64,000 nucleotides of DNA from Bacteroidales bacterium (lineage in GTDB: Bacteria; Bacteroidota; Bacteroidia; Bacteroidales; VadinHA17): contig DATGYZ010000007.1 of assembly GCA_035297425.1 (NCBI GenBank), positions 19,330-83,329 of the forward strand, in the 5' to 3' direction. Below the pieces are notes generated by a model. The model was not told where the DNA came from. It saw only the letters and a program-made list of their open reading frames with translations, and did not search any database. Position numbers and translations under genes: made by a program. This document shows positions 9,004 to 33,370 of the stretch, in pieces; position 1 is the stretch's first letter; each line of letters starts with the position of its first letter.

Positions 9004-9924
9004 ATGGGGAAATACTTTATTCTGACAGTTGTCATGATCTTCACATTGATGCTCCAGTCGTGCGGAGATAAAACCCATGCTCCTTCTGCCGTCATTTCAG
9101 CACAAATCAATGCCAATACAGTAAAGTTCAGCGCTGAGGTCACAGATGGCGATCAGTATGAATGGGATTTTGGCGATGGCTCTGAGCCCTCTTCCCTGGC
9201 TGATCCTGAACATGTATATCTTAAATTTGGAGTGGAGTATGTTGTGACATTAAAGATAACAGGCCCGGGGGGCGTTTCCGAATTCAGGTATACGGTAACT
9301 ATCCCACCTGCAAATCAAATGCAATCGCTCACAGGAGGAGATGGAAGAATTACAGGGAAGAAATGGAGATTGAAAGACGGGGAACCAATTAAAATTGTAA
9401 AACCTGATATTTCATTTTCTGTTATTTCAGAATGGTCTGCTTCATCTGTAGCTTCCGCCGGATTCATAGGTATAACCCAGAATGAATTCCAGTTTTTCAA
9501 CAACGGAAACTATACAATTACACTTACGACAAACGGTATACCAGCGGGACTTCAATATTGCCTGTCTAAAGGATTACAGAACACAGTACCGTCTGCTGCA
9601 GCTGCTGAAAAAGGATTAACCCTCGCAACCTCCAGCACTATTCTTTCAAATCTTACTTATGGATTGAATGAATCCAAGGACCTCACAGTAAGTACAACAG
9701 ACGGAACTCACCTTGACTTGGTAACATTCACTGATGTTACAACAATAACATTCTCAAGAGGCGGTTTCATGGGATTTTTGGACTGGAATACAGAATGCCT
9801 TGTTACAAGGATAAGTGAATCAGAAATGTCTATAGTATTATTCATGTCGGATATCCCTTCAGGCACACCGATGACAGGCAAAATAAATAAAGCATTCCTG
9901 CTGCAGTTTATTGCCGTTAATTAA
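9004..9924 (+). CDS. PKD-domain lipoprotein
   Basis: Lipobox (LMLQSCGD). PKD signature YEWDFGDGS...HVY. The C-terminal roughly 200 aa are unassigned. Confidence 0.6.
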   Translation: MGKYFILTVVMIFTLMLQSCGDKTHAPSAVISAQINANTVKFSAEVTDGDQYEWDFGDGSEPSSLADPEHVYLKFGVEYVVTLKITGPGGVSEFRYTVTIPPANQMQSLTGGDGRITGKKWRLKDGEPIKIVKPDISFSVISEWSASSVASAGFIGITQNEFQFFNNGNYTITLTTNGIPAGLQYCLSKGLQNTVPSAAAAEKGLTLATSSTILSNLTYGLNESKDLTVSTTDGTHLDLVTFTDVTTITFSRGGFMGFLDWNTECLVTRISESEMSIVLFMSDIPSGTPMTGKINKAFLLQFIAVN

Positions 9925-14035: not shown

Positions 14036-17000
14036 ATGAAAAATCTCTATGCCCGTAAAAAAGCTATTTCCGGCAAATTATTTTGCTTCTTCGCAGTTTA
14101 CCTGTTTTTTGCAGGGAGCGTTTTTGGACAGAAAACAATAAGTAATTCGTATGTATTTACTACCGGAACCACTGTGTACGGTGGCGATCTGGGCCTAACA
14201 TACACTACAGTAATAGGACCAAATCAGGACAATGCTTCATCAGGCCTTGTCAACTTGCCATTCACGTTCAATTTTTTAGGTCAGTCCTATACTCAGTTTT
14301 CGGTAAATTCTAACGGTCTTATGACTCTTGGAAGTACCCCTTTGACCGGAAATGAAACTTCAAATTCGATGGCGTCCGGCATCCCGGGGATAAAGATTGC
14401 ACCTTATTGGGATGACCTTGCAACCGGTACTACCGGGTATGTAAAACATGCCTATTACAGCGGTACAATGTATATAAATTTCAGGTTAACAGTACCAAAA
14501 AACACCAGTGGTGCTGCCAACGTGGATTTCCAGGTGAGATTGACCGCCAGCGGCGGCATCAGTTTTTATTATGGTTCGACAGCAACACCGTTCCCGTCTT
14601 TTCGCGATTTTCCAACCAATGCAGGAGGATACTCGATCGGAATTGGCAACTCAGATACAGATTTTGCCAGTGTGACCATGACCGGGTTAACCACGGCTAC
14701 CTGTGCATTCGGTACAGCAAATGATGCAAATACTCAAGCTATAACAGGGCCATTTGATATTTACTTTAACCCTGATGTTACTTTGCCGGCTATCTCTGCT
14801 CAAACAATTCCCAACACTCCCGGAACCGGTGACAGAACATTAGTAAAGACAATTACAGATGCCGGTAAAGGTGTCCCGATCACTGGCGAATATGTTCCTC
14901 GTATTTATTATAAAAAGAATGTAGGGGGTACTTATGTATCTACCCCCGGTGTCCTGACATCAGGTACCAGCGCAAACGGGACCTGGACTTTTACTGTTGA
15001 CCATTCATTAGTTGGCGGTGTTGTTCAGGGTGACTTAATCTACTATTATGTGGCTGCACAGGACCAGGCGTTTAATGTTGCATCAAACCCTGCAGGTGTT
15101 GTCGCAACTAATGTAAATACAATTACCACACCCCCGGCCACTCCTTCATCCTATATTATACCTATGGATTTTTCAGGTACCATGACTGTTGGTACAGGCG
15201 GAGACTATCCTTCACTTACGAATCCAGGAGGTCTTTTCGAACAATTAAGCGCCGGAAATCTGACTGGAAATTTAACGGTCAATATTATTTCTGATTTAAC
15301 AGCTGAAACCGGGACGATTCCCTTGCTTGCCTGGACCGAAGGTCCCGGAGGTCCTTTTACAGTTACTATTAATCCTTCAGGGGCAAGAACAGTCTCGGGA
15401 ACCTCAGGAACCAGCGGTCTGATTTATCTGAACGGAGCTAAGAATTTAATTATTGATGGATTGAATTCCGGAGGTAATACACTTACAATTGCAAATACAC
15501 ATGCCTCGAACACTACAATCAATTTCGTCAATGGTGCAAACAATATTACTGTCCGAAATTCAACAATTACCGCTAATGGTGGCAGTGTAATTACATTTGG
15601 AACCGCATTGTCTGGTTCTGTAAACTACAATAATACTATAAGAAACAACATAATTACCTCGGGTACAACCGTGCCATCCAATGGTATCTCTTTTAATGGA
15701 AGTATTACTTATGATTCATACGACAATGTTGTTGACAATAATAAAATCATCAACTTCTCAATATCGGGGATTACTCTAAGCAATGGATATATCAACACCA
15801 CTGTATCCAATAATGAGATATATAATGCAATTCCTTCCGGAACATCATTGAACGGTATTACTCTGGGAACATATTATGGCGCCGGAATTTACAATGTATT
15901 TAATAATTATATCCATGATCTGAATCCTGCCTCAACGACCAGTACAGGAACTATTAATGGTATTTTTTATGGCCAGAGTAGTTACAATACTCCAAACGAT
16001 ATCCTGAATATTTATAACAACGTGATCACGTTGGATGCGACTACTAATAATACTAACATTACTCTAAATGGCATGTGGTTTTCTGGTGGTAATGGCAGTT
16101 ATACACCAGTGGTATATATCTATTATAATTCGATTTATATAGGAGGTATTGGGATAGTAGCAGGAACATCTACCGGTTTAAAAATTGGAGGTGGAAGCTA
16201 TACCGCTAAACATACCATTAAAAATAATGCTATCTACAATGCAAGAACGGGAGGAACCGGAAAACATTATGGAGTTGGATTTTATTACAGTAACTATATA
16301 GTATCAGATTACAATGATATTTATGTAAGTCCGGGGGGAGTTTTCGGCCGTTTTGTTGTTACCGACTATGCCGACTTGGCTGCTTGGAAAACAGCTTCAA
16401 TGCAGGATGCGAATTCAGTTTCAGGAAATCCTGGTTACACGTCAGGCACAGATCTGACACCAGACATCACTAACCCAAACTCTGCGAATCTTGATAATCA
16501 TGGAGTCCCGATTGCCTCAGTAACTACCGATATCCTCGGAAATCCGCGGAGCACCTCAACTCCTGATATAGGAGCATATGAATTCGGCATTCCATATAAA
16601 ACACTCAACCTGAAGCTCTTCCTTGAAGGATTGTATACAGGCGCCGGAGTAATGAACCAGGCAGCTGATGCTGCAGGACCCCACTGGCCGGCCGGCGTTG
16701 CTGATCATATAACAGTTGAACTTCACGATGCAGCAACATATGCCACTGTGGTCCACACAGTTAATGATGCAATACTCTTAACTGATGGCAGTTTGACATT
16801 GACATTGCCAGTCAGCCTGAACGCCAGCTATTATATAACAATCAAACACAGGAACAGTGTGGAGACCACAACGCCAACAGCAAAATCGTTTGCCGGGAGC
16901 GTGATAGATCATGACTTTACCACAGGCGTGGCACAGGCTTACGGAGGGAATCTGAAACTGTCATCCGGAACATCCCTGATATTCACAGGTGATGTCAACC

Positions 17001-17170
17001 AGGATGGATCGGTTGACACCGGCGATATGATACCTGTAGATAATGATTCATTCAATTATGCCTCAGGGTACCTTTCATCGGATGTAAACGGCGACGGATC
17101 TGTCGATACTGCAGACATGATCTTCATCGATAACAACAGTGCGAATTATGTGGGGACACAGCATCCGTAA
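14036..17170 (+). CDS. secreted NIDO-like / right-handed beta-helix protein with C-terminal dockerin-like double EF-hand
   Basis: Signal peptide (FFAGSVFGQ). NIDO-like N-domain (FNFLGQSYTQFSVNSNGLMTLG...IAPYWDDL). Long N/I/T-rich parallel beta-helix-type repeats at roughly 15400-16320. No T9SS CTD at the C-terminus. Confidence 0.7.
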   Translation: MKNLYARKKAISGKLFCFFAVYLFFAGSVFGQKTISNSYVFTTGTTVYGGDLGLTYTTVIGPNQDNASSGLVNLPFTFNFLGQSYTQFSVNSNGLMTLGSTPLTGNETSNSMASGIPGIKIAPYWDDLATGTTGYVKHAYYSGTMYINFRLTVPKNTSGAANVDFQVRLTASGGISFYYGSTATPFPSFRDFPTNAGGYSIGIGNSDTDFASVTMTGLTTATCAFGTANDANTQAITGPFDIYFNPDVTLPAISAQTIPNTPGTGDRTLVKTITDAGKGVPITGEYVPRIYYKKNVGGTYVSTPGVLTSGTSANGTWTFTVDHSLVGGVVQGDLIYYYVAAQDQAFNVASNPAGVVATNVNTITTPPATPSSYIIPMDFSGTMTVGTGGDYPSLTNPGGLFEQLSAGNLTGNLTVNIISDLTAETGTIPLLAWTEGPGGPFTVTINPSGARTVSGTSGTSGLIYLNGAKNLIIDGLNSGGNTLTIANTHASNTTINFVNGANNITVRNSTITANGGSVITFGTALSGSVNYNNTIRNNIITSGTTVPSNGISFNGSITYDSYDNVVDNNKIINFSISGITLSNGYINTTVSNNEIYNAIPSGTSLNGITLGTYYGAGIYNVFNNYIHDLNPASTTSTGTINGIFYGQSSYNTPNDILNIYNNVITLDATTNNTNITLNGMWFSGGNGSYTPVVYIYYNSIYIGGIGIVAGTSTGLKIGGGSYTAKHTIKNNAIYNARTGGTGKHYGVGFYYSNYIVSDYNDIYVSPGGVFGRFVVTDYADLAAWKTASMQDANSVSGNPGYTSGTDLTPDITNPNSANLDNHGVPIASVTTDILGNPRSTSTPDIGAYEFGIPYKTLNLKLFLEGLYTGAGVMNQAADAAGPHWPAGVADHITVELHDAATYATVVHTVNDAILLTDGSLTLTLPVSLNASYYITIKHRNSVETTTPTAKSFAGSVIDHDFTTGVAQAYGGNLKLSSGTSLIFTGDVNQDGSVDTGDMIPVDNDSFNYASGYLSSDVNGDGSVDTADMIFIDNNSANYVGTQHP
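16982..17167 (+). other. dockerin-like module (two Ca-binding F-hand loops)
   Basis: DVNQDGSVDTGD (16991-17026) and DVNGDGSVDTAD (17081-17116) both fit DxNxDGxxDxxD. Their starts are 30 aa apart. Confidence 0.6.
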
Positions 17171-17202
17171 GAAGATAAAAAAGTAAAAAGATACTATTTC
17201 AT

Positions 17203-20200
17203 ATGAAAAAGTTAGGGATTGGCTTATACAGAGCAATGATGCTGATTACATCATTGCTTCTTTTGCCAGCCGAGGCTAAGGCAGACCAGAATGATTTCAA
17301 AATTCAGGTCCGAAACCTGACACAGCCAACGGACAGGACAATCGAATTCGATGTATACCTGCTGGACACAGATGGTCTTCAACAATTTGAACTTGGATCA
17401 GTCCAACTGGGTTTTCTGTTGAATTCCGGGATTTACACGGGAGGGATCTTATCAGCAACAATTGATAATACAGGATCAGGACTCAATGCCACTCAGCAAT
17501 TCAGCGCTGCTCCAAGTATAACTACCACACTTGCAGGTTATCCCGGCAAGACACTCATCCGTCTTGCCGGCAAAACGCCTCCCGGGGCAGGAGGCGGCAC
17601 TATAATTTCCACTACAGGAGATGGCACTTTGCTCACTCATTTTGTATTGACAAATACAGTTCCATGGGTAGCTAACCAGACCCCCGATATAGTATTCAAT
17701 TCCAGCACAGCAGTCAATCCCCTTTATGCAACAAGGGTATCACAATATATAGGCACTACCAATACTGCAATGGTTGTGACCCCTGGGACAAATGCATTAA
17801 TTTGCTGCAATCCTGCACTCAATGCTGCTGCCCCGGTGGCATTCAGCGTAACTGGAACCGGATCATACTGCCAGGGAGGAATTGGATTGCCTGTCGGGCT
17901 GTCAGGCTCCGAGGCAGGGGCAACATACCAGCTGTTGAAAGACGGAATTCCTTCCGGATCTCCCGTACCTGGCACCGGTTCTCCATTGGCATTTGGTAAT
18001 CAGACTGCTGGTACATATACAGTCACCGGGACGCTTGGCACCACAACGACTCCTATGACAGGTTCGGCTGTTATTACCGAAACACTCCCTCCTCTTCAGC
18101 CAGGAGATTTTACCACATCATCGCCTGTTGTTTATAAAGGAACCCAGGGTGTGGTATATACAGTCCCTGCGGTTGCCGGCGCAACCACTTACACCTGGAC
18201 CTACACCGGTTCTGGTGCTACATTTTCAGGAACTACAAATTCAATTTCGATAAACTTTTCAGCAACTGCCACTTCCGGAATACTTTCAGTTTCGGCAAAC
18301 AACAGTTGCGGAGCCTCTGTTGCCAGGACCCTGGCAATAACAGTAAATTCGATCCTGCCATCTGATTACCTGCTTCAGGTACTCAATCTTACCCAGCCAA
18401 CCAACAATACCATTGAATTTGATCTTTACCTTAAGGATACAGAACCATCAATACCTATGCAGCTAGCAACGATCCAGCTAGGATTTTTGCTGAACTCAGG
18501 TATCTATACCGGAGGTGCTCTTACAACTTCTATAAATAACACCGGATCAGGACTGAATCCTTCCCAGCAATTCACAGCTGCACCATCGGTAGTGACCACT
18601 CTTACGGGTTATCCAAACCAGACGCTTATAAGGCTTGCCGGCAGCACCCCTCCCGGAGCCGGTTCCGGAACAATTATATCTACTGGAGGTAATGGTACCC
18701 TTCTTACGCATTTTACCCTTACAAGCACTGTTCCATGGACCCCCTATTCACTTGCCAATCTGACATTTACATCAAGCACAGCCTTGTCTCCATTATATGC
18801 CACCCGCATATCTGAATATATAGGAACAACTAACACTCCTCTCGAAGTTATCCCGGGAACAAATGCTCTTGTCTGCTGTAATCCGGCATTAAATGCAGGA
18901 CCTCCGACAGCTTTTGCTGTTATAGGCGGAGGAGCATATTGTGAAGGTGGAACTGGTCTCCCTGTGGATCTTGCCGGATCGCAGGTAGGTGTCAGTTACC
19001 AGCTTTTTAAGGACGCAACAGCAACAGGATCACCAGTAGCAGGAACCGGAGCTGCCATTTCATTTGGGAATCAGACTGCCGGGACATACACTGTTTCAGG
19101 AACAAATCCTGCAGGAACAACACCAATGACCGGGAGTGTAGTAATAGCGATGAACCCACTTCCTCTTCAACCCGGCGATTTCACTGTATCTTCGTCAACA
19201 GTATGCCAGGGTGCATCAGGTGTTGTCTATACAGTTCCCGCAGACGCTTCAGTTACTTTTAACTGGAATTTCACCGGAACAGGAGCCACACTTACAGGTT
19301 CCGGCAACTCGGTAAGCGTAAATTTCTCTTCAACAGCTACATCCGGAAATCTTTCCGTGACAGCAACAAATACCTGTGGCACCAGCATAGCAAGAACTCT
19401 TGCAATTACTGTTAATCCCACACCGGTCCCGACTATCGCGGGTCTTACAACTGCCTGTGAAGGAACAACAGGAGTTGTCTACACAACTGAAGCAGGTATG
19501 ACCGCCTACCAGTGGAATATTTCAACTGGTGGTACAGTCACTGCAGGAGGCACCAGCACCGATAATTCCGTAACGGTTACCTGGTCAGTAGCAGGCAGCC
19601 AGTCCGTAAGCGTCAACTACAACAACGGCAATTGTACTGCTGCCACTCCGACATTATACCCTGTAACAGTCAATCCTGTACCCGCAATTCCAGTGGCAAG
19701 TGTCAGCCAGCAGCCTACATGCGCACTTCCTTCAGGGACGATAACTATAACTTCACCAGCCCCTGCTGCAGGTATAACCTTCAGTATTAATGGCGTGGAC
19801 TATACCAATACCACAGGTTTATTCACAGGTGTTGCTCCAGGAACTTATAACGTGACTGTTAAAAATGCCTCAGATTGTGTTTCTCCGGCAACACCACTGA
19901 CAGTAAATGCTGTACCCGGTGCACCTGCAGCTCCAACGGCAAGTGTAACGGCCCAGCCGACATGCGCTGTTTCGACGGGAACGATCACAGTATCATCTCC
20001 CGCTCCTGGCGCAAGTATATTCTACAGCATCAACGGCACAACCTACACGAACACAACGGGTATCTTCAGCAGTGTTCCTTCGGGCACTTACAGCGTGACC
20101 TACAAGGATGGCAGCGGATGCATATCTTCACCCGCAACGGTGACGGTCAATACTGCACCGGCAACACCAGCAGCACCTGTTGCAGTTCCAACACATCCGT

Positions 20201-23200
20201 TATGTAATGAGACAACCGGAACCATAACTGTCACATCTCCTGTTCCTGCTGCAGGCTTAACATATAGCATCGATGGAGTGACCTTTACAAATACAACCGG
20301 CGTATTCACCGGCGTTGTACCCGGAACATCCAGTGTGACCGTCAAAAATGCTGACGGATGCGTCTCAGCTCCCACTTCAGTCACAGTTAATACTGCTCCC
20401 GAGAAACCTGCCGCTCCCATTGCTAGTGTCACACAGCAGCCTACATGCGACATACCTGCCGGGACGATAACAATAACATCACCAGCCCCTGCTGCAGGTA
20501 TCACCTTCAGTATTAATGGCGTGGACTATACCAATACCACAGGTTTATTCACAGGTGTTGCTCCCGGAACATATAACGTGACTGTTAAAAATGCCGCAGG
20601 TTGTGTTTCTGCCCCGACCGCCCTTACCGTAAACGCTGCTCCCGAGACACCTGCTGCTCCTACAGCTTCTGTAACACAGCAGCCCACATGCGAGGTGGCT
20701 ACAGGTACGATAACCTTAACTGCTCCCGCTCCCGGCGCTGGAATATCCTTCAGCATAAACGGAGTGGATTACACCAATACATCGGGCGTATTCACGGGTC
20801 TTGTTCCGGGTACATATAACGTCACGGTTAAGAATGCCGCCGGGTGCGTCTCTGCCCCGACTGCCCTCACCGTAAACGCTCTTCCCGGCGCACCGGAGCA
20901 ACCAGGACTCTTTACTGCATCAGCCACTACTGTTTATCAGGGTTCTGGCAATGTTGTCTATACTGTACCGAACGATCCTCTGGCAACTTCATACACATGG
21001 ACCTACAGTGGCTCCGGTGCGGTAATTACAGGAACGGCGAATTCAGTCACTGTCAATTTCTCTGCTTCTGCAACTTCAGGAATTATCTCAGTAACTGCTA
21101 ATAATGGTTGCGGATCAAGTATAGCAAGAACTCTTGCCGTGACAGTCAGAAGCCTGCAATCGACCGATTATCTGCTTCAGGTCCTGAATATGACCCAGCC
21201 GACTTCCAATACTATTGAATTCGATGTTTACCTGCTTGACACAGATCCTTCGATACCGTTCGAACTGGCATCAGTTCAGCTGGGCTTCCTGCTCAATTCT
21301 GGTATTTATACAGGTGGCACCCTCACTGCAGCAATAAGCAATGCTGGGTCAGGACTGAATTCTCTTCAGCAATTCACCGCTTTACCGAGCGTTGAACCGA
21401 CCCTTGCTGGCTATCCTGGTCAGACACTTATACGTCTTGCAGGAAAAACACCTCCCGGTACTGGAAACGGGACAATTATTTCCACCTCAGGTTATGGCAC
21501 CCTGCTGACGCATTTCATACTTACAAGCTCAGTGCCATGGTCAAACAACACCAGACCCGAGCTTATCTTCAACTCTAGCTCAGCTTTAAACCCACTTTAT
21601 GCTACACGCTTATCTGAGTATATTGGGGGAATTAATACAGGTCTTGTTGTCACCCCGGGGACAAATGCACTGGTCTGCTGCAATCCGATGCTCAATGCAT
21701 CTGCTCCTGTCGCCTTTAATGTCACAGGAAGCGGTACATATTGCGAAGGGACACCAGGGCTTTCAGTAGGGCTTTCCGGTTCCGAGACAGGCGCCAGCTA
21801 CCAGCTCTATAAGGACGGCTTTGCATCAGGAGGCACAATTGCCGGCACTGGCGCTGCGCTTAATTTCGGAATACAAACTGCAGGTACCTATACAGTTACC
21901 GGAACCAACCTGAGCGGAACAACTCCAATGACAGGCAGTGCAGTATTAACTGTTACGTTACTGCCAGCTCAGCCCGGCAATTTCACAGCCTCTGCTGCAG
22001 TAGTTTACCAGGGAGCTTCTGATGTCGTATACACTGTTCCAAATGATCCTTCGGTAACGTATTCCTGGAGTTACACCGGATCAGGAGCACTGATCACAGG
22101 TAGTACCAATTCTGTGACTATCGACTTTTCGGCTACCGCAACATCTGGCACATTGTCAGTTACTGCGACTAATAGTTGCGGTACCAGTATCCCTAGGACA
22201 TTAGCTGTTACTGTAAACAGTCTGTCAACAACTGACTACCTGTTACAGGTTCTGAATTTGACTCAGCCGACCGATAACACAATCGAATTTGACGTCTATC
22301 TTCTCGATACTGAACCCTCACAGTCATTCCAGCTTGCTACTATCCAGATCGGACTATTGCTCAATTCCGGAATATATACAGGGGGTTCGCTTACGGCTAC
22401 CATTAGCAATGCAGGATCGGGACTTCTTCCCCTCCAGCAATTTACTGCAGCGCCCTCTGTTGTCTCGACCCTAACAGGGTACCCCGGACAGTCATTGATC
22501 CGTCTTGCCGGTAACACACCTCCGGGTGCAGGTGGTGGAACGATCATCGCCACCTCGGGCAACGGAACATTACTTACTCATTTCATACTGACAAGTACAG
22601 TTCCATGGACACCTAATTCCCTTGCAAACATGGCGTTTACCTCAAGTACGGCTTTGTCACCACTCTATGCAACCCGTATATCGCAGTACGTTGGGACTAC
22701 TAATACTCCGCTTGTGGTTATACCCGGTACGAATGCACTTGTTTGCTGTAATCCTCTGTTAAATGCCGGGGCTCCAGCAGCCTATGCAGTAATCGGAAGT
22801 GGTGCATATTGCGAAGGAGGGACAGGTTTGTCAGTTGATCTAGCAGGCTCACAATTGGGAGTTGACTATCAACTATTCAGAAATGGACAGGCTTCAGGAG
22901 TTCTTGTTCCGGGAACAGGCTCATCAATCTCCTTCGGAAATCAGACAGCCGGCATATATACTGTTACAGGGACCAATATCTCCGGATCAACACCAATGAC
23001 AGGCAGCGCAGTTATAACAATGACACCATTGCCAGTCCAGCCGGGTGATTTCACGGAATCAACATCGGCAGTCTGTCAGAATACCTCAGGTGTCTTATAT
23101 ACCGTTCCGAACGATCCGACTGTAACATACAACTGGTCATACTCCGGAAACGGGGCGACGATAAACGGAAGCGGTAATTCTGTCACGGTAGCCTTCTCTG

Positions 23201-25026
23201 AAGCTGCGACATCAGGCAATCTTTCGGTAAGCGCAACCAATACATGCGGCACCAGTATTCCCCGGACTATACAAGTAACTGTCAATCCACGTCCGGCCCC
23301 TGTTATCTCAGGCCTTACTTCGGTTTGTGAAGGCACAACAGGAGTTGTTTATTCTACCGAACCGGGAATGACAAATTACCAGTGGATTGTTTCACCGGGC
23401 GGTACAATAACAGCCGGTGGAACTAATACGGATAATACTGTCACTGTAGCCTGGACAACAGCAGGAAACCAGACCATCAGCGTCAATTATAGTTCAGGTA
23501 GTTGCACAGCTGTAAATCCGACAGTCTATCCAGTAACTATTAATTCACTGCCGGCACCAGCCGTAGCTGATATTGTTCAGCCGACATGCGCTGTCCCGAA
23601 TGGTACTATTACTGTGACATCACCATTGTCAGAAGCTGGTTACAGTATTGACGGATTGGATTACACCAACACATCGGGTGTCCTCACAGGTGTCGTCCCG
23701 GGTACTTACAGCGTCACCATAAGGAATGCTGCTGGGTGCGTCTCTGCTCCTGCTTCAGTAACCGTCAACGCTGCTCCTGAGACTCCTGCTGCTCCTGTTG
23801 CCAGTGTTACTGCACAGCCTACATGTGCTGTGGCTACAGGTACAATAACCGTAACATCACCCGTCCCGGCTGCAGGTATATCTTACAGTATCGACGGAGT
23901 GACATACACCAACACATCGGGTGTATTCACAGGTGTTGTCCCGGGTACTTACAGCGTCACCGTAAGGAATGCTGCTGGGTGCGTCTCTGCTCCTGCTTCA
24001 GTATTAATAGTAAATACTGATGGACGACCAGGAATTCCCGGTGATTTTACAGAGGTCAGCACATACATGTGTGCCGGAAATTCTGCTACTTACGCCATAC
24101 CGAAGAATCCTTCAGTATCATACATTTGGGATTACAGCGGGGAAGGAGCCACTATAACAGGAACCGGGAATAGTGTGACAATAAGTTTCTCAGCAAGTGC
24201 CACATCCGGGATCCTTTCAGTTGCCGCTCAAAATTATTGTGGAATAAGTGATAGCAGAAATATTCTGATAACTGTAAGGCAACTGCCTGGTCCTGCCGGT
24301 CTTATATCAGGCCTCACCAATATCTGTCAGGGAACAAAAGGGGTTGTTTACTCGGTCAACGAAATACCTAATGCAGTTCATTATATCTGGACGGTTCCTA
24401 AAGGAGCAAGCATTGTAGATGGGAATGATACAAGAACCATAGTAGTTGATTTCTCAGCAAGTGCTGTATCTGGTGAGATAACAGTTCAGGGATCAAAGCT
24501 TTGTGGTACCGGTAAAGTTTCACCTCCTCTTTATGTGACAGTAAATGAAACACCCTCAACACCTGTCATCAGTCTGGTGGAAAACGTTCTTCACAGTAAT
24601 ACACTGTCCGGTAATCAATGGTACTTAGATGAGACTGCAATTGTTGATGCAGAGGGTAATAAATACACTCCGGCAACAAACGGAAAATACTTCAGTATAG
24701 TTACCCTTGATGGTTGCAGTTCATCCAGGTCGAATGTTATAGATTTCACTCTTCCAATTAAGGAAAAGAAAGAGCTTGCAATCGATATCTGGCCAATACC
24801 GAACAGAGGTAACTTCACTATGACTCTTGAATCCGAAGATAAAGAGACTTATAATATAACAGTCTATAATCCCGGAGGTATGAAGCTTTACGAGAAGAAG
24901 AAAATCATCGTGAATAATTCTGCGAAGATACCTTTTGACCTGGGTGCATTACCGGCTGGTACATATTACATCCGGATATCCGGACCATCAGGCACATACA
25001 CAAGGACTATTATTCTCTCTAAGTAA
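17203..25026 (+). CDS. giant (2607 aa) modular cell-surface protein, T9SS substrate
   Basis: Signal peptide. Four ~178-aa A modules, each followed by Cys-containing Ig/PKD-like B and C modules. Seven SprB-like repeats. C-terminal T9SS sorting domain. Confidence 0.85.
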   Translation: MKKLGIGLYRAMMLITSLLLLPAEAKADQNDFKIQVRNLTQPTDRTIEFDVYLLDTDGLQQFELGSVQLGFLLNSGIYTGGILSATIDNTGSGLNATQQFSAAPSITTTLAGYPGKTLIRLAGKTPPGAGGGTIISTTGDGTLLTHFVLTNTVPWVANQTPDIVFNSSTAVNPLYATRVSQYIGTTNTAMVVTPGTNALICCNPALNAAAPVAFSVTGTGSYCQGGIGLPVGLSGSEAGATYQLLKDGIPSGSPVPGTGSPLAFGNQTAGTYTVTGTLGTTTTPMTGSAVITETLPPLQPGDFTTSSPVVYKGTQGVVYTVPAVAGATTYTWTYTGSGATFSGTTNSISINFSATATSGILSVSANNSCGASVARTLAITVNSILPSDYLLQVLNLTQPTNNTIEFDLYLKDTEPSIPMQLATIQLGFLLNSGIYTGGALTTSINNTGSGLNPSQQFTAAPSVVTTLTGYPNQTLIRLAGSTPPGAGSGTIISTGGNGTLLTHFTLTSTVPWTPYSLANLTFTSSTALSPLYATRISEYIGTTNTPLEVIPGTNALVCCNPALNAGPPTAFAVIGGGAYCEGGTGLPVDLAGSQVGVSYQLFKDATATGSPVAGTGAAISFGNQTAGTYTVSGTNPAGTTPMTGSVVIAMNPLPLQPGDFTVSSSTVCQGASGVVYTVPADASVTFNWNFTGTGATLTGSGNSVSVNFSSTATSGNLSVTATNTCGTSIARTLAITVNPTPVPTIAGLTTACEGTTGVVYTTEAGMTAYQWNISTGGTVTAGGTSTDNSVTVTWSVAGSQSVSVNYNNGNCTAATPTLYPVTVNPVPAIPVASVSQQPTCALPSGTITITSPAPAAGITFSINGVDYTNTTGLFTGVAPGTYNVTVKNASDCVSPATPLTVNAVPGAPAAPTASVTAQPTCAVSTGTITVSSPAPGASIFYSINGTTYTNTTGIFSSVPSGTYSVTYKDGSGCISSPATVTVNTAPATPAAPVAVPTHPLCNETTGTITVTSPVPAAGLTYSIDGVTFTNTTGVFTGVVPGTSSVTVKNADGCVSAPTSVTVNTAPEKPAAPIASVTQQPTCDIPAGTITITSPAPAAGITFSINGVDYTNTTGLFTGVAPGTYNVTVKNAAGCVSAPTALTVNAAPETPAAPTASVTQQPTCEVATGTITLTAPAPGAGISFSINGVDYTNTSGVFTGLVPGTYNVTVKNAAGCVSAPTALTVNALPGAPEQPGLFTASATTVYQGSGNVVYTVPNDPLATSYTWTYSGSGAVITGTANSVTVNFSASATSGIISVTANNGCGSSIARTLAVTVRSLQSTDYLLQVLNMTQPTSNTIEFDVYLLDTDPSIPFELASVQLGFLLNSGIYTGGTLTAAISNAGSGLNSLQQFTALPSVEPTLAGYPGQTLIRLAGKTPPGTGNGTIISTSGYGTLLTHFILTSSVPWSNNTRPELIFNSSSALNPLYATRLSEYIGGINTGLVVTPGTNALVCCNPMLNASAPVAFNVTGSGTYCEGTPGLSVGLSGSETGASYQLYKDGFASGGTIAGTGAALNFGIQTAGTYTVTGTNLSGTTPMTGSAVLTVTLLPAQPGNFTASAAVVYQGASDVVYTVPNDPSVTYSWSYTGSGALITGSTNSVTIDFSATATSGTLSVTATNSCGTSIPRTLAVTVNSLSTTDYLLQVLNLTQPTDNTIEFDVYLLDTEPSQSFQLATIQIGLLLNSGIYTGGSLTATISNAGSGLLPLQQFTAAPSVVSTLTGYPGQSLIRLAGNTPPGAGGGTIIATSGNGTLLTHFILTSTVPWTPNSLANMAFTSSTALSPLYATRISQYVGTTNTPLVVIPGTNALVCCNPLLNAGAPAAYAVIGSGAYCEGGTGLSVDLAGSQLGVDYQLFRNGQASGVLVPGTGSSISFGNQTAGIYTVTGTNISGSTPMTGSAVITMTPLPVQPGDFTESTSAVCQNTSGVLYTVPNDPTVTYNWSYSGNGATINGSGNSVTVAFSEAATSGNLSVSATNTCGTSIPRTIQVTVNPRPAPVISGLTSVCEGTTGVVYSTEPGMTNYQWIVSPGGTITAGGTNTDNTVTVAWTTAGNQTISVNYSSGSCTAVNPTVYPVTINSLPAPAVADIVQPTCAVPNGTITVTSPLSEAGYSIDGLDYTNTSGVLTGVVPGTYSVTIRNAAGCVSAPASVTVNAAPETPAAPVASVTAQPTCAVATGTITVTSPVPAAGISYSIDGVTYTNTSGVFTGVVPGTYSVTVRNAAGCVSAPASVLIVNTDGRPGIPGDFTEVSTYMCAGNSATYAIPKNPSVSYIWDYSGEGATITGTGNSVTISFSASATSGILSVAAQNYCGISDSRNILITVRQLPGPAGLISGLTNICQGTKGVVYSVNEIPNAVHYIWTVPKGASIVDGNDTRTIVVDFSASAVSGEITVQGSKLCGTGKVSPPLYVTVNETPSTPVISLVENVLHSNTLSGNQWYLDETAIVDAEGNKYTPATNGKYFSIVTLDGCSSSRSNVIDFTLPIKEKKELAIDIWPIPNRGNFTMTLESEDKETYNITVYNPGGMKLYEKKKIIVNNSAKIPFDLGALPAGTYYIRISGPSGTYTRTIILSK
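17293..17826 (+). repeat. A module copy 1 (cohesin-like candidate)
   Basis: DFKIQVRNLTQPTDRTIEFDVYLLDT ... GTNALICCNPALNA. Paralogous copies at 18364, 21166 and 22234. Confidence 0.8.
18364..18897 (+). repeat. A module copy 2
   Basis: DYLLQVLNLTQPTNNTIEFDLYLKDT ... GTNALVCCNPALNA. Confidence 0.8.
19690..20895 (+). repeat. five tandem SprB-like repeats (about 240 bp / 80 aa each)
   Basis: QPTCxxxxGTITxTSPxPxAGxxxSIxGVxYTNTxGxFxGVxPGTYxVTVKNAxGCVS recurs with starts near 19711, 19954, 20193, 20434 and 20674. Confidence 0.8.
21166..21699 (+). repeat. A module copy 3
   Basis: DYLLQVLNMTQPTSNTIEFDVYLLDT ... GTNALVCCNPMLNA. Most similar to copy 1. Confidence 0.8.
22234..22767 (+). repeat. A module copy 4
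   Basis: DYLLQVLNLTQPTDNTIEFDVYLLDT ... GTNALVCCNPLLNA. Most similar to copy 2. Confidence 0.8.
23566..24018 (+). repeat. two tandem SprB-like repeats
   Basis: QPTCAVPNGTITVTSP... and QPTCAVATGTITVTSP... A 98-nt stretch at 23663-23760 recurs at 23906-24003 with 4 mismatches. Confidence 0.8.
24784..25023 (+). other. T9SS type-A C-terminal sorting domain
   Basis: IDIWPIPNRGNFTMTL...YNITVYNPGGMKLYEKK...LPAGTYYIRISGPSGTYTRTIILSK fits the Por-secretion CTD pattern. Confidence 0.75.
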
Positions 25027-25042: not shown

Positions 25043-25087
25043 AAAAAAGGAGACCTTACAGACAAGTTCTGTAAGGTCTCTTGCTTT
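25043..25087. terminator. bidirectional terminator hairpin between convergent genes
   Basis: aaaaaa-ggagaccttacag-acaagtt-ctgtaaggtctc-ttgcttt. A 12-bp stem with A/T runs on both sides. Confidence 0.7.
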
Positions 25088-25127: not shown

Positions 25128-26795
25128 TTAATTGTTCTTTGAACCCTCGAGAATCCAGGTAATCAGGATATTCTTCTTATCTGCAGGCACACCTGAAGAA
25201 GGATGCCCGCTATTTACTTTCTTGTAAATCTTACCGTTTGTTGGTGTCGTCAGATCGATGTGACCGGAATTTACCAGGTTTGCATGAAAGGTTGATGGAT
25301 TTGACGATGGTGTCCAGCTATGGTTATGACAGCTGTTACATAAATTCAATATCGGAACCACATCTGCTGAGAATGATTTACCTGCGGAAGCTGTCGTAAA
25401 TGTCCAGGAATAATTTGTGGCGAGCGAATTTCCTGCAACATCCTTAACAGCTGTTGTTATTGTGCAGCTATATGAAGTACCAGGTAAAAGAGCAGCAGTA
25501 GGAGTAAATGTGGCAGTATTCCCTGACCAGCTGATAGCACCCGTTATTGTGGAGCTTCCCTGCTTTAAAGTAAAGGAAGAAGAGCTGACAGATGACTGGC
25601 TCATCGGTTCACTGAACGTGACCGAAGGTTTGATGCTTGTAGCTACACCTGTCGCATTTGATGCCGGATTAACAGATAAAACGGTGGGCGCGACATTATC
25701 TGTTGCCGCAGCAGTTGAAAAGGTCCAGGTATAATTTGATGCCAGCGAGTTACCAGCAACATCTTTAACTACTGTGGTTATTGTACAGGTATATGAAGAT
25801 CCTGTTAAAAATGCTGCAGACGGATTGAATGTGGCAGTATTTCCTGACCAGCTGATTGTCCCGGGCACCAAAGTACTCCCCTGTTTTACTGTAAAGGAAG
25901 AAGAGGTGAAAGATGACTGGCTAATAGGTTCACTAAAGGTAACTGATGGCTTAGTATTTGTTGCGACACCAGTTGCATTTGAAGCAGGGCTCACAAATAA
26001 TACAGTGGGAGGAATGTTATCAACTGTTGCTGCTGTTGTAAATTCCCATGAGTAATTGGATCCTAATGCATTCCCTGCAACATCCTTTACTGATGTTGTA
26101 ACGGTTGCTGAATATACTGTACCATTCTGTAGAGCTGAGGATGGAGTGAATATGGCTGCATTTCCTGAGTAACTTACAGTCCCGGGAATCAGATTGTTCC
26201 CCTGCTTAAGAAAGAAGGACGATATGGAAATTGTCTGGACATTAATTGCTTCGGAAAAAATAACTGAAATTGTGCTATTTGTCAGAACCGATGTTGAATT
26301 ATTAGCAGGTGTAACAGACAGAACTGAGGGAGCCTGAACATCGGGTGCGGGACCTGTAGTAAAACTCCAAATGTAGTCTGTTTCAAGGTAGTTACCAGAA
26401 ACATCCTGCAAAGCTGTTGTGATAGTGCATGTATATAGCGTTGAAGGCTGAAACGAAACTGATGGTATGAAAGTGGCTTTCATTTCCGCATATGAGACAG
26501 TACCTGGTATCACATTATTTCCATTTCTGACTATAAAAGCTGATGACAATGTTGTTTCATCAATCTTTTCGTTGAATGTTGCCTCCGGCGTAGAAGATAC
26601 TGCAATTGTTGAATTGTTTGCCGGACTTACGGAAGTTATTTCAGGTCCGGTTAAATCCGCCGGAGATTTGTCGATCTGTTCTTTTGTACACCCATTTATT
26701 ATTAAAATAAAAGCAACAATAACAACGGAAATGAAGAACGGAGGTTTTTTTCCTGAATTCTGTGAAAAGAATTCCAATCCTTTATTTGTTTTCAT
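25128..26795 (-). CDS. lipoprotein with four Big_5 (SbsA-type Ig-like) repeats and a C-terminal CXXCH cytochrome-c-like domain
   Basis: Lipobox (IINGCTKE). Four roughly 105-aa repeats PxVLSVxPAxNATGVxT...VTFSEPxSQSS...GTxSWSGNTATFxP...YxCTITTxVKDVAGNSL..NYxWxFxT at about 25391-26654. CNSCH at 25326-25340. Confidence 0.75.
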   Translation of the reverse strand: MKTNKGLEFFSQNSGKKPPFFISVVIVAFILIINGCTKEQIDKSPADLTGPEITSVSPANNSTIAVSSTPEATFNEKIDETTLSSAFIVRNGNNVIPGTVSYAEMKATFIPSVSFQPSTLYTCTITTALQDVSGNYLETDYIWSFTTGPAPDVQAPSVLSVTPANNSTSVLTNSTISVIFSEAINVQTISISSFFLKQGNNLIPGTVSYSGNAAIFTPSSALQNGTVYSATVTTSVKDVAGNALGSNYSWEFTTAATVDNIPPTVLFVSPASNATGVATNTKPSVTFSEPISQSSFTSSSFTVKQGSTLVPGTISWSGNTATFNPSAAFLTGSSYTCTITTVVKDVAGNSLASNYTWTFSTAAATDNVAPTVLSVNPASNATGVATSIKPSVTFSEPMSQSSVSSSSFTLKQGSSTITGAISWSGNTATFTPTAALLPGTSYSCTITTAVKDVAGNSLATNYSWTFTTASAGKSFSADVVPILNLCNSCHNHSWTPSSNPSTFHANLVNSGHIDLTTPTNGKIYKKVNSGHPSSGVPADKKNILITWILEGSKNN

Positions 26796-30331: not shown

Positions 30332-30517
30332 ATTGTACCTCCGGCTCTTTCACATCATCCTACCAATACGAACAAGCCCTTCAATTCATTGTTTTTTGCT
30401 TTTTGATCAATGCCTGAATTGAGACTACTAAGAGGCAATTATTCAGGATGGTGTACTTACAAATCATGATCAGACACAGCTTCCTCCAAAAAATTATCAT
30501 ACGGTCTGTAATATTTC

Positions 30518-30525
30518 TACTTTTG
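30518..30525 (+). promoter_or_regulatory. candidate -7 box TACTTTTG
   Basis: TAnnTTTG 31 bp upstream of ATG 30556. Because it lies inside the longer ORF-track reading frame, it supports the shorter start. Confidence 0.35.
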
Positions 30526-30555
30526 CGGAGTAAGTTCAACCCTAAACCAAAAGAA

Positions 30556-31797
30556 ATGAGGAGATATTTATGGGCGGCCATTTTGCTGGTATCCATATTT
30601 CAGGATGGAAAATGTCAGCAAGCAGATAAAAATGACTGGGGAGTAAAACCATCAGGATTTGTTAAAACAGACTTTTTTTACGATACAAGGCAATCGTCGG
30701 CCTCTAACGGATTACGGGAAGGTCATTTCTATCTTTATCCTGATAATATTTTACCTGACTTTGAAGGAAAGGACTTAAATGCAAATCCTTCATTTCATAT
30801 GCTCAGCCTGCAGTCGAGACTTAGAGGTGAGATAACTGCACCTGATGCGTTTGGCGCAAAGACTACCGGAGCAATTGAGGCAGAGTTTTTCGGTACCAGT
30901 GAATCAGATCTGAATGGATTCAGGCTCAGGCATGCATTTGTAAAGCTCGACTGGTCCAGGTTTTCACTGATGGTCGGGCAAAACTGGCATCCGCTCTTTC
31001 CGGCAGAAAGCTTTCCGGGGACAATAAGCTTCAATACGGGAGCACCCTTTGTTCCTTTCAGTCGCAATCCGCAGGCCAGGCTTTCATATAAGGCCGGACC
31101 GGCAACACTGCAGTTTACACTCTATTCACAACGCGATTTCACCTCTACCGGAGTTGATGGCGCCAGCAGCAAATATCTTCGTAACAGCGGATTGCCAGGA
31201 TCTGATTTCCAGGTAAAAATACCTGTTAATGATGCACTTACGGTATGGGGAGGGATTGATTATAAAAAGCTCAGGCCCGAAATTAAGACAGCAACCAATT
31301 TTGAAACAGAATCAGCAATCGGTTCAATAGCTGTATTTTCTACCCTGAAAGCTAAAACCAGACTATTGAATGTAAGTATGATGGGTAGCTATGTTCAGAA
31401 CGGGACTGATCTGATGATGCTTGGAGGATATGCGGTTTCAGAAATAACAGACCTTTTAAGACAGGAAAAAAAGTACGTAACTCTGAATTCAGCAAATGTA
31501 TGGATTGACATTGCGACAAATGGAAGCATTGTTTCAGCAGGAGTGTTTGCAGGATACAGCTCGAATCTTGGCTCATCATCCATGATCTCCGGGCAGGTAT
31601 ATTCGAGAGGCAGCAACATTGACCATCTGTACCGCATCTCTCCCAGGGTCATATTTACAAGCGGGAAAGTAAGCTTTGCATCTGAAGCTGAAATAACAAC
31701 TGCTGCTTATGGATCAATGATGCAGGATGGAACTGTCAGTAATAGCAGCAATGTTACAAATATCAGAATGCTTCTGAGCTCCATACTCAGATTCTGA
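30556..31797 (+). CDS. outer-membrane beta-barrel porin-like protein
   Basis: Start moved to MRRYLWAAILLVSIF (signal peptide). Alternating amphipathic strands and a C-terminal Phe (ILRF). Confidence 0.5.
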   Translation: MRRYLWAAILLVSIFQDGKCQQADKNDWGVKPSGFVKTDFFYDTRQSSASNGLREGHFYLYPDNILPDFEGKDLNANPSFHMLSLQSRLRGEITAPDAFGAKTTGAIEAEFFGTSESDLNGFRLRHAFVKLDWSRFSLMVGQNWHPLFPAESFPGTISFNTGAPFVPFSRNPQARLSYKAGPATLQFTLYSQRDFTSTGVDGASSKYLRNSGLPGSDFQVKIPVNDALTVWGGIDYKKLRPEIKTATNFETESAIGSIAVFSTLKAKTRLLNVSMMGSYVQNGTDLMMLGGYAVSEITDLLRQEKKYVTLNSANVWIDIATNGSIVSAGVFAGYSSNLGSSSMISGQVYSRGSNIDHLYRISPRVIFTSGKVSFASEAEITTAAYGSMMQDGTVSNSSNVTNIRMLLSSILRF

Positions 31798-31852
31798 TTT
31801 CAGATTCTAAAATAAATATCTATTGCTTAAATTAGACGAGAATTAAGAATCT

Positions 31853-33370
31853 ATGCAAAAAATCAAATACCTCGGGCTGCTGATATTGCCACTTATGTTC
31901 CTTGTTAACGTTTTCTGGAACAATAAAACAGAGTTTGAGCAGGATCCGAATTACATGTACATGTTCAATGCACTTAACCTGACAACTCATCCCGGAAGCA
32001 TTGCCACTTATACCCAGGGGACAACAGCAGTCGAGATATCTGCGGTGATCATGAGGGTCCATCACATGTTCAGGAACACCGATGACAGCTTTACCGATGA
32101 TGTTCTTAAGAACCCGCAATTATATATCATGTTTGTAGTTAGGACAATGGTTGTCCTGATCTGTATACTGCTCTTTGCATCAGGCTTCTTTATAGCAAAA
32201 TTGACGGATGAGATCATTTTTGGAATACTTTTCCAGTCATTCCCTGTGTTTTCCGGAACAGTCATGCCGTGGGCCCTGGAATCTTTTGCAGCTGAGCCTG
32301 TGATCCTTGCCTGTGTATCATGTTTTGTATTGTTAATTCTCTGGAGATTTTATTTCGGAAAATCATCCGGCCACGTGGTTATTTTCAGGAGAAAAGAGAC
32401 TGAAATATCAGTAGATAAATTTTCTGTTTTATCCGGTGTCCTGATGGGTTTTTGCCTTGCAACAAAGGTCAATACTTTCTCACTGCTCCTGCTTCCTGTA
32501 ATACTTCTGCCTGAATATCGTGACAAAATCACATTCCTGGCAGTAAGCTGCCTTTCATATATTTTCTTCACTCTCCCTGTTGCTTACCTGTATAAGCTCA
32601 CTGCGGCGTGGTATCTACAGGTTTTCATTCATTCTGGAATATATGGAGGCGGAAGTGCAAACATAGTCGATTTCGCATCTCTTGCAGAGAATCTCAGGGT
32701 GTTCCTCAAAAGTGAAACGATCATCGTCTTTGTCATATCACTTTCGGTAATATTTTTGCTTATCCGGGTTGTACTCAGGAAATATGATAATGATTTTAAA
32801 TTGCTTCTTCTCTTCCTGCTTGTCCAGGTTATAGCTATCCTTGCTGTTCTGAAACATTTCTACCTGTATTACCTGATGCCGGTTGTACCCACTCTTGCAG
32901 TCAATATCTTCCTGATACTTCGATCCGCCAGGCTGCCATATGCAGTCAGGGTGTTGTCAGTTGCGGCAGTGATAATTGCAGGATTTTCAATGAATGGTGA
33001 TTTTAATATCCGCAAGACAAATTTCTACAGTACTGATGAACCCTCAGATGGTATAAACATATATTCATACCAGAGCGATTCACCGTTATATGCTTTAAAG
33101 CTTGGAGATGATGCTTCAAGAAATGCCAACTCCGAAAAGCTTAAAGAACTATATGGTGATCATTACTTCTATGACATCTGGAATAAGATCATAATAACAT
33201 GGACAGACACCATCAGTATTGAAGAATTGTCAGGAAGCAAGATCTATCTGCATGCTCTCGATGAGTATATGAAGGAATTGCCGCCTCCTTTCGGGATTGA
33301 GTACCTTGAGAAAGGATTATATCTTGTCAAAGCACCAGGCAGCAACAGCATTGCAACAAGTGAGGAATAA
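31853..33370 (+). CDS. polytopic membrane protein, possibly GT-C-fold (ArnT/PMT-like) glycosyltransferase
   Basis: At least 9 hydrophobic segments, an acidic first loop (EFEQDPNYMY), and a soluble C-terminal roughly 130 aa. The function call is weak. Confidence 0.3.
   Translation: MQKIKYLGLLILPLMFLVNVFWNNKTEFEQDPNYMYMFNALNLTTHPGSIATYTQGTTAVEISAVIMRVHHMFRNTDDSFTDDVLKNPQLYIMFVVRTMVVLICILLFASGFFIAKLTDEIIFGILFQSFPVFSGTVMPWALESFAAEPVILACVSCFVLLILWRFYFGKSSGHVVIFRRKETEISVDKFSVLSGVLMGFCLATKVNTFSLLLLPVILLPEYRDKITFLAVSCLSYIFFTLPVAYLYKLTAAWYLQVFIHSGIYGGGSANIVDFASLAENLRVFLKSETIIVFVISLSVIFLLIRVVLRKYDNDFKLLLLFLLVQVIAILAVLKHFYLYYLMPVVPTLAVNIFLILRSARLPYAVRVLSVAAVIIAGFSMNGDFNIRKTNFYSTDEPSDGINIYSYQSDSPLYALKLGDDASRNANSEKLKELYGDHYFYDIWNKIIITWTDTISIEELSGSKIYLHALDEYMKELPPPFGIEYLEKGLYLVKAPGSNSIATSEE

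Follow-up and report, generated by a model that had tools for sequence, protein, structure and literature searches.

A candidate cohesin–dockerin-type cargo and scaffold gene pair linked to type IX secretion in an uncultured Bacteroidales bacterium

Two adjacent genes in a 64,000-nucleotide window (the whole stretch analysed, positions 19,330 to 83,329 of contig DATGYZ010000007.1) from an uncultured member of the Bacteroidales drew our attention as a possible docking pair. We think it rather probable that the two open reading frames (ORFs), ORF1 and ORF2, encode the cargo and the anchoring scaffold of a cohesin–dockerin-type docking system that is coupled to the type IX secretion system (T9SS) in uncultured Bacteroidales. 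ORF1 would provide the plug, a dockerin-like tail, and ORF2 the sockets, four copies of a module referred to here as the A module. This reading is supported by three independent lines of evidence, namely the sequence match of the tail to dockerins, structural matches of the A module to cohesins and of a natural three-module protein to a known cohesin architecture, and the conserved gene order and fusions of the two modules. An earlier note, made from the sequence alone, had proposed a non-cellulosomal scaffold-and-cargo pair at this position, and both ORFs are present at the coordinates that it gave. Their features are as follows.

14036-17170, plus strand: ORF1, 1044 aa, with a Sec-type signal peptide, an unannotated body of about 820 aa, an X-like beta domain and a dockerin-like tail, and with neither a T9SS C-terminal sorting domain (CTD) nor a lipobox.
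14036-14128, plus strand: signal peptide of ORF1 (aa 1-31, ...SVFG/Q), of the signal peptidase I (SPI) type, judged by eye; orthologous cargo proteins have the same type.
16598-16975, plus strand: X-like beta domain of ORF1 (aa ~855-980), with the motifs LEGLY..G.M.QA, ADHITVELH and YYITIKHRNSVET, from alignments of tail proteins.
16988-17167, plus strand: dockerin-like tail of ORF1 (aa 985-1044), two repeats of a putative calcium loop plus helix, at the end of the protein (...HP-stop).
17171-17202, plus strand: spacer of 32 nt from the ORF1 stop to the ORF2 ATG, A-rich, with no terminator-like hairpin.
17203-25026, plus strand: ORF2, 2607 aa, with a signal peptide, four A modules among PKD_6/Ig_7-type repeats and a T9SS type-A CTD.
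17293-17832, plus strand: A module 1 (aa 31-210), with a cohesin-like predicted fold, directly after the signal peptide.
18364-18903, plus strand: A module 2 (aa 388-567).
21166-21705, plus strand: A module 3 (aa 1322-1501), of the subtype of module 1.
22234-22773, plus strand: A module 4 (aa 1678-1857), of the subtype of module 2.
24787-25014, plus strand: T9SS type-A CTD of ORF2 (aa 2529-2604; PF18962, TIGR04183).

The tail of ORF1 holds two EF-hand loops, DVNQDGSVDTGD (nt 16991-17026) and DVNGDGSVDTAD (nt 17081-17116), whose starts are 30 aa apart, exactly where the earlier note had placed them, and the protein ends in ...GDVNQDGSVDTGDMIPVDNDSFNYASGYLSSDVNGDGSVDTADMIFIDNNSANYVGTQHP-stop. 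Ligand positions 1, 3, 5, 9 and 12 are acidic or amide residues in both loops, and the duplicated loop pattern is kept in alignments of 26 and of 158 family tails. Taken alone, the last 76 aa of ORF1 score 25.7 bits with Dockerin_1 (PF00404), above the cutoff of 22.9. The score falls with added context, to 21.0 bits for the last 216 aa and 18.7 bits for the whole of ORF1. Dockerin_1 was also matched by 13 of 25 orthologous tails at E<=0.01. When a profile of the tail family was compared with the PDB, about 25 solved dockerins and almost nothing else were returned, among them 2vn5_B (E 7e-5), 4fl4_A, 5lxv_B, 1ohz_B and the X-Doc chain 2b59_B. Both the score of the isolated tail and these matches agree with the suggestion that the layout is the duplicated F-hand of a dockerin, and they support assigning the ORF1 tail to the dockerin-type modules, with putative calcium loops.

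The conserved unit is larger than the tail. In an alignment of 25 tail-bearing proteins, it is a cassette of about 190 aa in which a beta domain of about 125 aa is followed by the dockerin, with the motifs LEGLY..G.M.QA, ADxITVELH and YYITIKHRNSIET and a protein end of the form ...P-stop. The X-like beta domain stands directly N-terminal of the tail in all tail proteins aligned, and neither Pfam nor a PDB sequence search recognised it. The cassette was matched 132 times in an indexed search, and metagenome contigs yielded over 544 stretches of it, with Bacteroidales, Lentimicrobium and Ignavibacteriales as sources; a few of the proteins that carry it are named "dockerin type I domain-containing protein" by NCBI. 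There are exceptions to its terminal position, as in proteins P0087, P0102, P0105, P0106 and P0126 and in the ORF at L109:5636-12031, where the X-dockerin lies within the chain, ahead of fn3-like repeats and a C-terminal Fib_succ_major (FISUMP) domain. A candidate class of small "tail-only proteins" of 172 aa (including P0185, P0187, P0197, P0204, P0208, P0228, P0238, P0240 and P0243) was rejected, as all of them begin inside the X-like domain, at its conserved Met (M[NR]QA...), which marks them as truncated gene calls from short contigs.

Structural evidence on the cassette comes from P0046, a natural protein of 395 aa made up only of a signal peptide, an A module, the X-like domain and the tail. 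In its AlphaFold2 model (predicted local distance difference test, pLDDT, 92.8) the tail helices lie at residues 346-357 and 376-387. The best PDB matches in a Foldseek-type structure comparison were 4fl4 chains L, I and C and 3kcp_A, at E 2.4e-10 to 7e-10 over about 389 aligned columns. These are the CipA fragment Coh9-X-DocII of Clostridium (Acetivibrio) thermocellum, matched end to end. Compared with the isolated X-Doc chain 5k39_B, the C-terminal half of P0046 reached a template modelling (TM) score of 0.60. On these models the cassette is predicted to be a type-II-like X-dockerin dyad, a comparison made on the homologue P0046 and not on ORF1; the assignment carries over to ORF1 because the cassettes of the two proteins are about 49% identical.

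For the A module, the AlphaFold2 model built from a 20-sequence alignment is confident (pLDDT 91.6; predicted TM score, pTM, 0.87) and consists of about 9-10 strands with no helices. All seven matches at E<=1e-3 in a Foldseek search of this model against the PDB were cohesins, of types I, II and III, and not Ig, FN3 or generic CBM domains, so that the cohesin-like layout proposed earlier holds up at the level of the predicted fold. The best match was the Ruminococcus flavefaciens ScaC cohesin 5lxv_A (E 1.2e-4, TM 0.50/0.53), and other top matches were 2vo8 (Clostridium perfringens), 3ghp and 3fnk (type II, A. cellulolyticus), 4ums (type I, P. cellulosolvens) and 4fl4_B (C. thermocellum). The C. 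perfringens cohesins 2vo8 and 2jh2 ranked 3 and 26. Cohesins made up about 38 of the top 50 matches, CBM3 modules came next, and Ig and FN3 domains were essentially absent. By its predicted fold, the A module is a cohesin-type jelly-roll beta-sandwich, whereas by sequence it lies outside PF00963. When the family was searched for a conserved 8-3-6-5 face, conservation peaked in beta2, beta3 and beta6.

The four paralogous modules that had been placed at nt 17293, 18364, 21166 and 22234 of ORF2 are indeed there, with 68-73% mutual identity and a mean column identity of 84%. Their C-terminal halves tell apart two subtypes, A1/A3 and A2/A4. Because the modules pair in this way, ORF2 consists, as its sequence reads, of a two-module unit duplicated within the protein (A subtype 1 followed by A subtype 2 and by PKD/SprB-like repeats, twice over). 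The protein has nine PKD_6 repeats and a signal peptide that was judged by eye. Its sorting domain passes the cutoffs of both PF18962 (27.3 bits against 27) and TIGR04183 (28.9 against 23), as would be expected from the T9SS CTD that the earlier note assigned to ORF2. Over ORF2 (window positions 18000-24000) the GC content is 0.48-0.51, compared with about 0.40-0.43 nearby, and the GC skew is -0.14 to -0.15, a deviation that probably arises from the Thr/Ser/Gly/Ala/Pro-rich repeats.

Gene order was assessed with hidden Markov models (HMMs) of the A module and the tail in six-frame scans of loci, and N-terminal A modules were counted where 900 bp or more of sequence preceded them. Of 38 such genome loci found via the A module, 27 have a tail that ends just upstream of it on the same strand, at a distance of 124-275 bp (median 175 bp). 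Among metagenome loci found independently via the tail, the tail gene is just upstream of the A gene in 34 of the 40 that could be evaluated. The distance from the end of the tail to the A domain ranges over 123-459 bp across both sets. Tails occur at a density of about 1 per 15 kb in these enriched loci, and we estimate that chance adjacency would amount to a few percent. The arrangement has a prevailing asymmetry, with an upstream protein that has the tail and no A module and a downstream protein that has the A module and no tail. Of the 23 downstream A proteins that are complete, 16 carry a T9SS CTD (type A in 9, the CHU_C type B in 7), and none has a tail.

The pair also varies in instructive detail among related genomes. 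In the closest metagenome-assembled genome (MAG; locus L001), two ORF1 homologues, 87% and 59% identical, take the place of one upstream, and the content of ORF2 is divided between two neighbouring genes of 1459 and 1398 codons with two modules each. At L002 the pair is kept, with an ORF1 homologue that is 58% identical and a four-module protein of 2962 aa. There are arrays as well, for example in the order tail-tail-A..tail-tail-A-tail-A on one MAG-323 contig. The two modules are also found fused, in the manner of a Rosetta-stone protein, with 38 of 171 A proteins carrying the X-dockerin cassette at their own C-terminus. A wider look at proteins with the same tail, as the earlier note had suggested, leads to the same place, and the conserved synteny and the fusions strongly couple the tail and the A module genetically.

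The A module belongs to a large family. A profile search of 1.84 billion representatives found 625 clusters, defined at 50% identity, with E<=1e-3, of which 394 reach E<=1e-10; neither Pfam nor NCBIfam has a model for the family. The module nearly always begins at residue 25-40, directly after the signal peptide, and two to five copies are present in some proteins. At the N-terminus it would form the cell-distal tip of an anchored protein. In the simplest members, of about 292-304 aa, a single A module stands between a signal peptide and a T9SS CTD. Among 48 family members scanned, 21 matched Por_Secre_tail, 3 CHU_C and 9 Dockerin_1. The MAGs that contain the 38 genome loci with an A module are all from uncultured Bacteroidales/Bacteroidota, and among them are bins labelled Paludibacter and Rikenellaceae. 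A 220-codon ORF of MAG-323 (JAEUTG010000016.1; L003:2282-2941, the same as L016:15272-15931) encodes a divergent A module (E 1e-25) behind a signal peptide and nothing else, neither CTD nor tail. It sits in a seven-gene array of tail and A genes and could be a free or soluble socket. In Bacteroidota CP058707.1 (L041:10634-12611), two overlapping ORFs downstream of a tail gene match the A-module model weakly (E 6e-4 and 8e-6), each in another region of it. A divergent A gene seems to have been split here by a frameshift, and several neighbouring genes also look fragmented.

The cargo side of the pair can be described from the domains of 25 upstream tail proteins, which include PKD, PKD_6, GEVED, Ig_7, fn3, Big_2, CUB and F5/8-type-C domains and, in one protein, a subtilase. 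No glycoside hydrolase was seen in these 25. Since the cargo is adhesin- or protease-like and free of glycoside hydrolases, the system would be non-cellulosomal, as had been proposed. The body of ORF1 itself is less informative. It gave no Pfam match at E<=1, aa 1-855 found no PDB sequence match, and the only NCBIfam match was a weak one to choice-of-anchor Q at aa 821-850. Consequently, the NIDO-like domain and beta-helix repeats once read into ORF1 find no backing in Pfam, NCBIfam or the PDB. That ORF1 lacks a T9SS sorting domain was borne out by Pfam and NCBIfam scans, and its signal peptide was recognised by us also, by eye only.

Canonical cohesins are part of the picture in this lineage. 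Where they occur together with an X-dockerin, they are N-terminal to it in the same chain and never in the downstream gene. The L067 and L106 ORFs have a canonical cohesin and an X-dockerin in one chain, and P0087, P0102 and P0126 combine a canonical cohesin, an X-dockerin and an A module in one protein. The L117 ORF has four cohesin modules by our HMM, at 87 bits by Pfam, together with an X-dockerin. In a cellulosome, the dockerin of a scaffoldin does not bind the scaffoldin's own cohesins. Because of this rule, we infer that X-dockerin proteins with canonical cohesins look like primary scaffoldins with a different receptor, for which the A module on T9SS-anchored proteins is the most evident candidate. 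Neither the window nor any of the 38 genome loci with pairs yielded a canonical cohesin. Two further proteins stand somewhat apart. In Lentimicrobium sp. JBGGIW010000003.1 (L039:4256-7651), a 1132-codon ORF carries the same X-dockerin tail, Ig domains and, by iterated HMM, four modules of the cohesin type (E 1e-28 to 1e-31). The Pfam Cohesin model is silent on this ORF at E<=0.01; by its domain order it would be a scaffoldin-like protein of Lentimicrobium. On the metagenome contig Ga0105047_10013803 (L109:425-5611), an ORF combines fn3, Pfam Cohesin (33.8 bits), a Dockerin_1 that differs from the present tail and is more canonical (34.4 bits), and Por_Secre_tail (41.2 bits). This is direct evidence, in the form of domain matches, that canonical cohesin–dockerin modules too are wired to the T9SS in these bacteria.

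The mechanism that we propose can be outlined from these parts. ORF1 and ORF2 would be co-transcribed, which is probable because the 32-nt A-rich spacer between them has no terminator-like hairpin. ORF2 would be exported by Sec and then by the T9SS. Type-A CTDs are swapped for a covalent link to the cell surface, and the CTD of ORF2 would be exchanged in this manner. The PKD/Ig stalk of the anchored protein would bear four sockets with the cohesin fold, in two subtypes, and the calcium-loaded X-dockerin of ORF1 would plug into one or more of the A modules. Proteins with both an A module and an X-dockerin would act as adaptors, and X-dockerin proteins with canonical cohesins would be primary scaffoldins that dock onto A-module anchors. 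The binding itself, its calcium dependence, its stoichiometry, its specificity and its site in the envelope are what we infer from the anatomy of the genes, the predicted folds, the gene pairing and the fusions. A bolder version, which we hold only tentatively and consider unlikely, is that the A/X-dockerin complex forms in the periplasm, so that the CTD-less protein hitchhikes through the T9SS translocon on its CTD-bearing carrier and ends up displayed on the anchored multi-socket scaffold. Such hitchhiking would explain why a Sec-only cargo gene is directly upstream of a gene for a T9SS substrate whose first domain is the receptor.

Several observations weigh against the docking model. By sequence, the A module has no tie to known cohesins: hmmscan of the four A modules gave no match to any Pfam model, PF00963 included, at E<=10, PF00963 found no match among the 48 A-family members scanned, and hhalign returned a probability of 0.4% for the A profile against a CipA cohesin profile and of 0.25% against a 27-sequence cohesin profile that included Bacteroidota cohesins. 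Three rounds of HMM iteration from canonical cohesins never recruited the A modules, a protein search seeded with the CipA cohesin returned only close relatives, and the A modules had no match in NCBIfam or, with two profiles, among PDB sequences. The expected link to PF00963 is thus missing from both HMM and profile–profile comparisons, and the strand-by-strand equivalence to motifs of the CipA cohesin, on which the earlier note leaned, has no statistical support at this level. The structural likeness to cohesins is itself limited, with TM scores of only about 0.4-0.55 and sequence identities of 8-15%. CBM3 modules, which have the same jelly-roll, appear from E ~1e-3 (5gy1_A 1.2e-3, 1nbc_A 9.4e-3, 4jo5 1.4e-2); Pfam CBM_3 gave no match to the A modules. 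The pTM of P0046, 0.62, is ambiguous as to cis docking of its tail and A module, and the occurrence of both in one chain could equally be argued to mean that they do not bind. Pfam-detectable cohesins occur in the lineage and could be the true partners of the tail. The tail adjoins an A gene at most A loci, but its distribution is also the wider of the two. Of 82 tails with enough sequence downstream, only 32 have an A module next, the rest preceding further tail genes or unrelated genes, and in one Lentimicrobium and one Ignavibacteriales locus no A module lies within 10 kb of the tails. Finally, ORF1 and related cargo proteins have SPI signal peptides (ending ...AQ or ...GQ at the cleavage site) with neither a lipobox nor a T9SS CTD, and to reach a surface scaffold they would still have to cross the outer membrane.

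Some of these points also count in favour of other explanations. The A module may be the ligand-binding tip domain of fibrillar T9SS adhesins, for example a CBM3-like domain for a polysaccharide or a host surface, in which case the tail would bind canonical cohesins elsewhere or be a calcium-stabilised C-terminal module, and the pairing would reflect co-regulated surface-protein operons. We judge this to be possible but improbable. The fold is shared with CBM3, of which 5gy1_A (E 1.2e-3) and 1nbc_A (9.4e-3) are among the matches, yet cohesins consistently outrank CBM3 in the structure searches. The A module caps long Ig/PKD stalks at their N-terminal end, in the manner of adhesive domains, and 50 of 82 tails have no A neighbour. 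However, it is hard to obtain from co-regulation a tail at the extreme C-terminus of one gene and an A module at the extreme N-terminus of the next (27/38 and 34/40 loci). The absence of a sequence link between the A module and cohesins also speaks for an adhesin tip, as do the canonical cohesins of the lineage, at times in one protein with an A module (P0087, P0102, P0126), but there are none in the window or in the 38 genome loci with pairs, and the cargo is adhesin- or protease-like and does not consist of glycoside hydrolases.

Another explanation, to which we give somewhat less credence still, is that the X-dockerin cassette is mainly an export handle. The cargo would bind the A module of its neighbour in the periplasm and be carried through the T9SS, or the cassette would be a new class of T9SS signal, and display would be a consequence. 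The SPI-type cargo without a CTD or lipobox, the cassette at the end of the protein and the 16 of 23 downstream partners that are T9SS substrates are all consistent with a handle. Substrates with type-B CTDs have dedicated partner genes (sprB-sprF), and the tight pairing seen here resembles these. On the other hand, literature searches found no precedent, the complexes to be exported would be very large (1044 + 2607 aa), and many tail genes have no adjacent A gene. It is also conceivable that everything is coincidence, with a generic beta-sandwich for an A module, a generic EF-hand pair for a tail and an adjacency that comes from tandem genes for modular surface proteins. The moderate TM scores (0.4-0.55), the 8-15% identity to cohesins and the tandem arrays of tail genes at L016, L093 and L103 would be expected from this. 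The structure matches, however, are almost only to cohesins or CBM3 rather than Ig or FN3, the PDB matches of the tail profile are nearly all dockerins, and three modules are collinear with CipA Coh9-X-Doc at E 2e-10. Moreover, the order is asymmetric, from a protein with a tail and no A module to one with an A module, a CTD and no tail, and not a repeat of one architecture. Coincidence is already disfavoured on these grounds, and we regard it as very improbable. The docking model, in which the tail of ORF1 would bind the A modules of ORF2, remains the reading that we prefer.

The surroundings of the pair in the window can be described briefly. A hairpin with a 13-bp stem lies between ORF2 and the convergent gene, and it is probably a bidirectional terminator that closes the ORF1–ORF2 unit.

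25050-25080, no strand assigned: hairpin with a 13-bp stem.

The convergent gene (25128-26795, minus strand) encodes a secreted-looking protein of 555 aa with four Big_5 domains, and on the upstream flank (9004-9924, plus strand) there is a secreted-looking PKD protein of 306 aa. Neither has a tail or an A module. Further downstream (30448-33370) lie two neighbouring ORFs, of 449 and 505 aa, for neither of which Pfam gave a match at E<=0.001.

Should the A module prove to be the receptor of these dockerins, a large unannotated domain family (625 clusters) would gain a function. Bacteroidota would then have modular plug-and-socket surface display through the T9SS, for adhesins and proteases rather than for cellulases, which would open the question of how the T9SS selects its cargo and how a CTD-less partner exits. 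In practical terms, an orthogonal and compact docking pair could become usable for surface display in Bacteroidota. The pair recurs in many related genomes and points to cellulosome-style docking in Gram-negative bacteria. Cohesin–dockerin assembly is regarded as essentially Gram-positive and cellulosome-centred. Bacteroidales dockerins have been taken for orphans or ascribed to lateral transfer (PMC6487960, PMC10266427). What we describe would be a cohesin–dockerin system, with putative binding, in which the receptor family is cryptic, the anchor belongs to the T9SS and the cargo is non-enzymatic. Searches of the open-access full-text literature turned up neither the A-module family nor its association with X-dockerin genes, nor any cohesin-type scaffold anchored through the T9SS, which is not proof of novelty.

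The closest parallel is the type II anchoring of the cellulosome. In C. thermocellum, the type II X-dockerin of CipA binds cohesins of the anchoring proteins SdbA, Orf2p and OlpB (PDB 2b59, 3kcp, 4fl4, 5k39). The two systems are alike in having a C-terminal beta X module with a duplicated calcium-loop dockerin, a cohesin-fold receptor (here predicted) in one to several copies on a surface-anchored protein, and adaptor-like proteins with both receptor and plug. They differ in that the present system is from Gram-negative Bacteroidales and has a T9SS CTD (type A or CHU_C type B) in place of SLH (S-layer homology) repeats. In addition, the receptor here is invisible to PF00963, the cargo is adhesin- or protease-like, the partner genes are adjacent, and the cargo must also cross an outer membrane. 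As for the anchor, well-known examples of T9SS display are the gingipains of Porphyromonas gingivalis on A-LPS (the anionic lipopolysaccharide) and SprB of Flavobacterium johnsoniae, with a type-B CTD. ORF2 resembles known T9SS CTD proteins in its signal peptide, its type-A CTD and its long Ig/PKD stalks. While known T9SS cargo proteins are displayed individually, ORF2 is proposed to be a multi-socket scaffold for a second, CTD-less protein. Multi-modular cellulases linked to the T9SS have been reported for "Candidatus Paraporphyromonas polyenzymogenes" (PMC5831590).

Use of cohesins and dockerins outside cellulose degradation has a parallel in the glycosidase and toxin complexes of C. perfringens (PDB 2vo8, 2jh2, 2ozn). 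Unlike the pair described here, those modules are recognisable by sequence, and they are not linked to the T9SS, lack the conserved order of tail gene before receptor gene and have no X-like domain of the present kind. Cohesin- and dockerin-like modules were surveyed across the three domains of life by Peer et al. 2009, as cited in PMC6487960. Dockerins in Bacteroidetes and Bacteroidales genomes and metagenomes are mostly found without cohesins (PMC6487960, PMC10266427, PMC9763041), and dockerin-only MAGs have been described (PMC9763041). The tails studied here are like these orphans in being PF00404-type modules without a detectable PF00963 partner, but they come with a candidate receptor family, suggested by fold and synteny, and they are part of a larger cassette. 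The parallel on the receptor side is with human Ruminococcus, in which divergent cohesins that escape sequence detection were found by AlphaFold, as reported in a 2026 preprint (bioRxiv 10.64898/2026.02.05.704116). Both cases involve divergent cohesins (here putative) that HMMs miss and structure finds; the ruminococcal ones belong to the cellulosomes of Firmicutes, whereas the A module would be another family, in another phylum, with another mode of anchoring.

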